Assembly (NCBI GenBank): GCA_963724275.1 | Contig: CAVRUB010000005.1 | Span: 8,474 to 72,473 of the forward strand | Direction: 5' to 3' | Source: an uncultured Actinomycetota bacterium | GTDB taxonomy: Bacteria > Actinomycetota > Actinomycetes > Propionibacteriales > Nocardioidaceae | DNA length: 64,000 bases | Part shown: one piece after another, positions 61,062-61,310 of the stretch | Numbering within the stretch: position 1 is the first letter of the stretch | Layout: every line of letters begins with the position of its first letter | Position numbers and translations under genes: made by a program | The notes under the pieces: generated by a model | The model's input: the letters and a program-made list of their open reading frames with translations, nothing else | The model's database searches: none | Told to the model about the DNA's origin: nothing

Positions 61062-61310
61062 GCTCACTCGCCAGACCGCCAACATCGGGAGCGTGCACCC
61101 CCCGCTGAAACCGCCCCCGTAGAGGTCGCCCGCCAAGGTTGAAATGGGAAGAGTGCAAACCCAGGCGGCGCCGGTGCGACCGTTCATGGTCCTCACGGCG
61201 TCCCGGAACGTACCGCGGGCGCCCATGTTCCCAGGTGCACCGCCTCTGTGGACCTGCCCCTGAGGGCACTGACCGCAAAGGTCTTTGCCTAGCCCATAGC
61301 GCCCAGAAAG
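61062..61310 (+). repeat. interspersed repeat family, copy E (longest, about 250 nt)
   Basis: ctcactcgccagaccgccaacatcgggagcgtgcaccccccgctgaaaccgcccccgtagaggtcgcccgccaaggttgaaatgggaagagtgcaaacccaggcggcgccggtgcgaccgttcatggtcctcacggcgtcccggaacgtaccgcgggcgcccatgttcccaggtgcaccgcc...ctttgcctagcccatagcgccca. Confidence 0.85.

Follow-up and report, generated by a model that had tools for sequence, protein, structure and literature searches.

Bacterial MITEs such as the Correia, ERIC/IRU and RUP elements are small, non-coding and intergenic, and they occur in many copies in unrelated contexts. Their terminal inverted repeats (TIRs) are common to an autonomous IS family, and the copies decay after insertion. 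The MITEs of Pseudomonas syringae offer a comparison case of non-autonomous elements that are derived from insertion sequences (PMC3189936). The attC arrays of integrons and the REP-BIME elements are also intergenic and multi-copy, and are found co-oriented in gene-shuffled regions. Transposition in the IS3 family follows a copy-out/paste-in route via a circular intermediate and is accompanied by target duplications of 3-4 bp. Some members of this family, such as IS1397, target repeated extragenic sequences.

The repeats described here were found in a stretch of 64,000 nt from an uncultured Actinomycetota bacterium, which is referred to as the window. They share with bacterial MITEs all of the features listed above, but differ from them in that most copies are without one or both ends, target duplications are not seen, no partner IS can be identified as the source of the interior, neighboring copies are always co-oriented, and the arms reassort around the core. 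They resemble attC arrays and REP-BIME elements in being co-oriented, intergenic and multi-copy in a gene-shuffled region, but neither an integrase nor a RAYT gene is present, R''/L''-L'/R' symmetry of the attC type and palindromic REP units are lacking, and the copies are irregular in their spacing and in the genes that separate them. The closest match of their ends is to IS3-family copies on actinobacterial plasmids, whose TIRs of about 35 bp correspond in sequence and in inward orientation; these IS copies are 1.3 kb long and carry OrfA/OrfB, whereas the element of the window is non-coding and has an unrelated interior. Taken together, the repeats are probably, for the most part, decayed copies of a MITE that was moved in trans by an IS3-family transposase not present in the window. 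They are best filed as a new and apparently undescribed MITE family with IS3-type TIRs in uncultured soil Actinomycetota.

Methods

The window covers positions 8,474-72,473 of the forward strand of contig CAVRUB010000005.1 (assembly GCA_963724275.1) and has a G+C content of 67.6%. Copies within it were recovered by blastn with the three long copies as queries and were aligned with MAFFT. The core, written as a degenerate pattern, was used to scan one genome per species as well as JGI metagenome contigs. The metagenome loci were fetched by a pattern that demands the core, and later copies by a profile of arm and core. HMMs of the ends were made first from the M-type right end and later from both ends together.

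Copies of the repeat in the window

The preliminary description of this DNA had reported five co-oriented copies (A to E), and all five were recovered on the + strand. Copies A and D, for which it had estimated agreement at roughly nine of ten positions over the first ~130 nt of A, are 89.9% identical over 178 nt (blastn, E 1.5e-59). Copy E is 87.4% identical to A over 151 nt (E 1.9e-46), 81.1% to D over 206 nt (E 2.8e-44), 80.5% to B over 113 nt (E 1.7e-21) and 79% to C over 48 nt (E 3.4e-5). The recovery by blastn together with the MAFFT alignment places the similarity far beyond chance, and the repeat family in the window is therefore real. The similarity ends at the element, outside of which the flanks of the window copies are unrelated. 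The alignment also bears out the shared core and the left extension described for B, D, and E, to which it adds a conserved, shorter left arm in copy A. The single-nucleotide indels that had been reported are present as well, so that the copies have no common reading frame and no conserved peptide. A conserved peptide was rejected on these indels, and the reading frame of the core GTG differs between subfamilies of the repeat.

The list of copies and their extents needed revision. A sixth, partial copy (F, 22065-22164, + strand) had been overlooked, copy D reaches further to the left, to 42375, and copy E further to the right, to about 61316. Copy F begins with a left TIR (22065-22093, GGGTCTGCTGCACGAGTTGGTGACAGCTG, HMM E 1.3e-7), which is followed at 22123-22164 by a left-arm variant that is truncated before the core and is 82% identical over 44 nt to the left arm of the related locus L038 (E 1e-6). 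Copy A (22943-23147, + strand) has the short type II left arm TAATGCACTCAGCGGGGAGATGGTCTC, a core at 22970-22998 and a right arm that contains the window-specific insert (approximately 23047-23142); a TIR was not detected in this copy. Copy B (24539-24712, + strand) has a long type I left arm starting from CCAACA, a core at 24587-24615 and a short, divergent right arm that ends near CCCATTGCGCC. In copy C (29440-29550, + strand) the left arm is short and degenerate, the core is at 29457-29485, and a right TIR at 29516-29549 is matched on the opposite strand (...CAATCTACTCACCGGACTGCGCAGCAGACCC, HMM E 1.3e-5), while a possible degenerate left repeat at 29390-29430 is weak (E about 0.1). Copy D (42375-42657, + strand) opens with a left TIR (42375-42404, GGGTCTGCTGCGCAGATCGGTGACAACTGG, E 9.7e-7) and a linker, continues with a type I arm from 42428 and a core at 42479-42506, and has a right arm in which a degenerate right repeat is accompanied by an insert (approximately 42554-42640) and by the end motif CCCATAGCGCCCATAGTGACGC. 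Copy E (61062-61316, right end approximate, + strand) has a type I left arm with CCAACA at 61079, a core at 61128-61157 and a right arm with an insert (approximately 61205-61292) and with CCCATAGCGCCCAGAAAGGGCTAC as its end motif. For copies B and E the HMM detects no TIR, and a degenerate left end upstream is visible by eye only.

According to Pfam, the genes that neighbor the five copies are mutually unrelated. They code for a histidine-kinase-like ATPase, a SHOCT/PLDc_N protein, a LuxR regulator, AAA_16 regulators, an alpha/beta hydrolase, a fragment of a Mutator-family (IS256-type) transposase and a SnoaL-like protein.

Relatives elsewhere and anatomy of the element

The scan of one genome per species with the core pattern gave two real loci, one, with two copies, in a MAG of an uncultured Actinomycetota bacterium (L009) and the other in a Nocardioides MAG (L005); the remaining 21 matches were due to chance. 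Among the JGI metagenome contigs 61 loci were found, about 56 of them real. Several metagenome loci sit at contig ends, and some contigs end inside the element, which is expected of a repeat that breaks assemblies. The flanks are unrelated across the six window copies, the approximately 56 metagenome contigs and the two MAGs, and interiors that are about 95% identical occur in different contexts (L035, L044, and L066). Searches of plasmid, phage, and viral-contig collections returned nothing similar to the whole element, and a full-text search of the literature with the core and end sequences returned nothing relevant.

The element is 160-300 bp in size and has no coding capacity. Its core reads TC/GCCCGCCAAAGTT-NN-AA(A)GGGAG-N-GTGCA across the copies and can also be written GCCCGCCAAAGTT-NN-AAAGGGAG-N-GTGCA. 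The long, type I left arm, CCAACA..GG..GTGCAC..CGCTC..(variable hairpin)..GGGGTAGgtCTC, is present in copies B, D, and E, and the short, type II form found in A, TGAATGCACTCAgcg.GGAGATGTTCTC, is homologous to it. On the other side of the core, the M-type right arm (..CAGGTCA.CCTGTCACC.GATCGTGCAGCAGACCC) is found in C, while the E-type arm reads ..GGTCAGTCTGTCAC..GCAGGGCGTCCC followed by ACATCGCCCAGAwwGACGC. All combinations of these arm types occur around the core. Within the window the right arm is conserved as well as the core or better, and part of the apparent invariance of the core is a matter of ascertainment, since the retrieval pattern required it. The copies retrieved with the arm and core profile have another 5' half of the core, GCC.GCCA.CATGCGAwAGGGAG.GTGCAA.

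The right arms of A, D, and E are of the E-type, with an insert of about 87 nt placed exactly after ..GCGTCCC. This insert was found nowhere else. It has an inverted repeat of its own of 13-14 nt (TACCGYGGGYGCCC / GGGCACTGACCGYA), and it may therefore be a small nested element. The insert also contains GGAAC-N17-GTT, which resembles an ECF-sigma promoter of the SigE/SigH type and is a candidate for one.

Inverted ends and their match to the IS3 family

The preliminary description had found no terminal inverted repeats. This is incorrect for the family as a whole and for copies C, D, and F within the window, where the HMM of the combined ends detects a right TIR in C and left TIRs in D and F. 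These repeats had been missed; they lie outside the coordinates that had been assigned or in copies that had been taken as partial. The TIR is about 35 bp long, with the consensus 5'-GGGTCTGCTGCACGATCAGGTGACAGG.TGACCTG...CAGGTCA.CCTGTCACC.GATCGTGCAGCAGACCC-3'.

Downstream of the core, the right-end HMM matches in direct orientation only, in 14-20 copies. Upstream of the left arm it matches in inverted orientation only, in a subset of the type I copies; such inverted matches are found in L043, L067, L068, L075#2, L077#2, L009a, and the window copies D and F, and the one direct upstream match is the end of the preceding element in L080. The conserved module is thus on the inner side of the TIR in 21 of 21 cases, which places it where the interior of a transposon would be, given that stray IS remnants would face either way. 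Intact ends are few. A left TIR is present in 5 of the 50 copies for which 200 nt or more of upstream sequence are available, and in addition in L075#2, L077#2, and window F, while a right TIR is present in 14 of 56 copies and both TIRs only in L009a.

The 35-nt end consensus matches 88 actinobacterial plasmids (Rhodococcus, Mycobacterium, Streptomyces, and others), usually twice per record. The IS3-family copies on these plasmids carry ends of the form GGGTCTGCTGCACG..., which are 83-97% identical to the end consensus of the element. On plasmid p1 of M. gordonae (NZ_CP070974; L086 6001-7325) two end matches enclose an element of 1325 bp that is bordered by a 3-bp target duplication (GAC/GAC). 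Its ORFs overlap, OrfA having an HTH_Tnp_1 domain and OrfB HTH_21 and rve domains, and OrfB scores 276 bits against the NCBIfam model NF033516 for "IS3 family transposase" (cut-off 160). This element has what defines the IS3 family, namely an OrfA with HTH, an OrfB with DDE (rve), overlapping frames, a length of 1.2-1.5 kb and a 3-4-bp duplication. In the Rhodococcus plasmid pYLC1 (NZ_CP017300) the end matches enclose annotated IS3-type orfA/orfB, broken by an IS110, and an IS3-type orfA comes directly after the end in two plasmids of Streptomyces (NZ_CP009803 and NZ_CP109590). The preliminary description had named a match to a catalogued IS terminus as an observation that would speak against its own reading, and such a match now exists for the termini, though not for the interior.

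No IS with matching ends was found in the window or in about 280 kb of related metagenome loci. The window contains an IS3-family element of its own, with orfA at 19406-19744 and orfB at 18591-19406 on the - strand, an ALIL frameshift pseudoknot at 19320-19448 on the same strand, and a left end, TGAACCGCCCCGG, near 19780. It is apparently interrupted by an IS30-type transposase gene (17452-18741, HTH_38 and rve), and the whole region spans 17452-19860. The repeats had been described as unlike the ends of this element, and indeed this IS3 copy (18.6-19.8 kb) has different ends and an OrfB identity of only 41%, which means that the partner IS is not in the window. Comparison of the element interior with the subterminal regions of four plasmid IS3 copies gave no significant similarity by nhmmer, blastn, or alignment with shuffled controls, and derivation of the interior by internal deletion is for this reason not supported. 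An origin of the interior from the 5' UTR and RBS of an IS3 orfA was also considered, given the likeness of GGAAG.GTGCAC by eye, and was rejected after the same three kinds of comparison were negative.

Structure and genomic linkage of the repeats

A hairpin retained with different sequences in each copy (GACCG/CGGTC in D, GACC/GGTC in E, and ACC/GGT in A) had been taken as a hint of RNA structure. The differences between these hairpins are losses of pairs and not compensatory changes. The proposed scan with Rfam covariance models gave no match on the element. At the gathering score, Rfam 15 finds in the window only the ALIL pseudoknot, which is the IS3 frameshift signal, and nothing on the repeats; no match was obtained at E<=10 in 601 nt around copy E, or at E<=1 in 19 related loci, where the models include the HEARO/IscB omega-RNA, riboswitches, and ribozymes. 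The consensus structure given by RNAalifold has an energy of -3.3 kcal/mol for left arm and core (29 sequences) and of -6.5 kcal/mol for core and E-type arm (12 sequences), with no convincing compensatory change or covariation in either alignment. The all-against-all tblastx comparison of the 3-kb flanks of independent loci gave no common gene. According to a crude gene call based on GC3, the upstream neighbor is co-directional with the element in 21 cases and opposite in 15, and the downstream neighbor in 19 and 26, respectively. Given the lack of an RNA signal and of a linked gene, and the random orientation of the neighboring genes, readings as a structured RNA or as a cis-acting leader are unsupported.

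It is accordingly highly improbable that the repeats are + strand genes for a multi-copy small RNA, or for a guide scaffold such as a TnpB omega-RNA or an IS110 bridge RNA. What speaks for such an RNA is a possible core hairpin, CUCgCCC / GGGaGAG, that closes an A-rich loop of 14 nt and in which the few changes are compatible with U-G pairing on the + strand only, the Shine-Dalgarno-like AAAGGGAG in the core, and a marginal MFE z-score of -1.9 against dinucleotide shuffles for the + strand of copy D, compared with 0.1 for its - strand. Nonetheless, the z-scores of the + strands of E and C are 0.9 and 0.0, the named helices are no better than shuffled or slid controls, the consensus structure is near zero, and Rfam gives no match even at permissive thresholds. 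No TnpB, IscB, or IS110 gene adjoins the copies, and where the core was not demanded in the search, the copies differ in the 5' half of the core and in the local hairpin. Of the origins that the preliminary description had left side by side, the mobile element and the IS end come close to this evidence and the multi-copy structured ncRNA does not.

Other candidates were examined and rejected. A cis-regulatory leader or riboswitch does not fit downstream genes that are unrelated and flanking genes of random orientation, and a tRNA- or tmRNA-like element was dismissed because ARAGORN finds only the tRNA-Pro at 9184-9260. In most copies GTGCACTCCCC of the left arm could form a long-range helix with GGGAGAGTGCA of the core, but this helix shows no covariation, its pairs are disrupted where positions vary, and pairing is almost as good after a slide of +2. 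Two alternative hairpins of the left arm are no better than shuffles.

Orientation and reassortment of the copies

At every locus with more than one copy, all copies are on a single strand. This is the case for the window (6 copies), for L080 (3-4), for L077 (3), and for L009, L060, L045, and L075 (2 each). It amounts to about 13 independent agreements (approximately 2^-13, p about 1e-4). Symmetric inverted ends do not predict such strict co-orientation, which therefore counts against the reading as a MITE. A bias with respect to the replication strand was rejected as its source, given that 17 of 46 loci have a positive GC skew on the element strand, a non-significant result. In L080 three to four copies are placed head to tail within 900 bp (4518-5413), and a left arm without core is there followed directly by a second left arm with core.

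The arms also reassort. The same left arm and flank are joined to different right arms in L030, L083, and L035, and the converse swaps are seen between L024 and L036, between L025 and L053, and between L009a and L042/L071. Part of this reassortment may come from chimeras in the metagenome assemblies; mixed combinations of arms are present in the window itself. A search for terminal direct repeats shared by the two arms was negative, with all z-scores below 2, and symmetry of the integron attC type is absent.

Co-orientation and reassortment could be accounted for if arms and core were a site of site-specific or homology-driven recombination that borders shuffled gene blocks, in loose analogy to the attC sites of integrons or to pdif sites, with the IS3-type ends as incidental carriers. 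Such a site would agree with the agreement in strand at all multi-copy loci, with the exchange of left and right arms around the core, with a core that varies only at 5-7 central nt, and with the position of the window copies between single-gene blocks that are found elsewhere in relatives. It is nonetheless quite unlikely, because no recombinase or other gene is associated with the element, the halves of the core are not inverted repeats, the genes between the copies have no consistent orientation or number, and the element is missing from the borders of the blocks in relatives. Part of the reassortment may also be due to assembly chimeras, and part of the core invariance is due to the search pattern. 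The predominance of copies with one end or none would instead be explained if an unrelated conserved intergenic sequence had repeatedly had an IS3-family IS inserted beside it, with decay of the IS to solo ends. Targeting of repeated extragenic sequences like that of IS1397 would provide a precedent, and ends of the IS21 type also adjoin copies (L027/L062 and L009b). This explanation is very unlikely, given that random insertions would face either way and the TIR is directed inward in all 21 cases, and that no transposase remnants are found between the ends and the module.

The internal module, that is the AAAGGGAG.GTGCA core with the left arm, may with some small likelihood be a functional, strand-specific site, for example for protein binding or recombination. 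The MITE would then have spread the module, and the host or another mobile system could keep it after the ends decay. If true, this would account for the far higher frequency of the module compared with the ends, for the reassortment of the arms around the core, and for the constant co-orientation of neighboring copies in gene-shuffled regions.

Proposed origin of the element

As a MITE, the complete form would start with the left TIR (GGGTCTGCTGCACGATCAGGTGACAGG.TGACCTG) and a linker of 24-55 nt, continue with the left arm (CCAACA..GG..GTGCAC..CGCTC..GGGGTAGgtCTC), the core and a variable stretch, and close with the right TIR (CAGGTCA.CCTGTCACC.GATCGTGCAGCAGACCC), with about 160-300 bp in total. 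It would encode nothing, and the OrfAB of an IS3-family IS with the same ends would act on it in trans, presumably by the copy-out/paste-in route of that family. After insertion most copies would have lost one or both ends, and some would have exchanged arms or gained the insert (A, D, and E). Both the mobilization in trans by OrfAB and this order of events are inferred.

The element is short and non-coding and is present in many copies in unrelated contexts, as is typical of MITEs. No clear target-site duplication was seen around the copies: L009a is flanked by TTT/TTC, and C, L055, and L068 are without a repeat. The target duplications of old copies may have been lost. No empty site was found through the relatives of two neighboring genes, whose contexts differ; the relatives' contigs that carry the SnoaL-like and SHOCT genes have different flanks, and synteny is not kept. 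The small number of intact ends also counts against a MITE, and so do about 22 conserved nt that the E-type copies share outside the degenerate right repeat.

The significance of the element is modest. It records an apparently undescribed non-autonomous element of uncultured soil Actinomycetota that is linked to IS3-type ends, it explains repeats, and perhaps assembly breaks, in the genomes that carry it, and it marks the region of 20-62 kb of the window as rich in mobile elements and rearranged. Co-orientation and reassortment possibly reflect a real mechanism, such as orientation-biased insertion, insertion beside existing ends, or recombination at the core. If true, such a mechanism would give new insight into how IS3-type elements and their derivatives shape accessory regions.

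Genes and other mobile elements around the repeats

IS21-type elements are found about 20-140 nt from repeat copies in two unrelated loci (L009 1991-4150, and upstream in L027/L062), one with istA/istB-like ORFs and the others with repeated end motifs GTG(A/T)CAGCGGGG. In the window, the fragment of the Mutator-family (IS256-type) transposase is located at 42889-43155, just after copy D.

The SHOCT/PLDc_N gene at 23369-24157, between A and B, is 92-95% identical at the DNA level in contigs of three relatives (L094-L096), where it has unrelated contexts and ragged block ends; the gene order around this region is not conserved among close relatives. Paralogous gene sets are found at 24846-27630, 28111-29424, 32905-34254, 36889-38376, and 39574-42219, and comprise three alpha/beta hydrolases and several regulators of the AAA_16/TPR/LuxR type in both orientations.

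Downstream of copy E, the true product of the SnoaL/DUF4440 gene has 150 aa (about 61502-61954). A block of about 810 bp that includes it (61365-62175) is 87-88% identical in contigs of five relatives (L089-L093), in which it has the same ends in different surroundings. There it is flanked by the direct repeat GGATCCGCTTGCGG (..GGATCCGCTT/GCGG on the left and ..CAGCGGATCC/GCTTGCGG on the right). The block has the appearance of a mobile cassette with a single gene or of a site-specific insertion.

In the region 59599-60438, an ORF of 136 aa (GC3 0.93) with no Pfam match has 77% identity to the N-terminal portion of an ORF of 373 aa in L009 (6155-7276). The remainder aligns in a different frame, with a DNA identity of 65%, which points to a frameshift or a split of the gene in the window.
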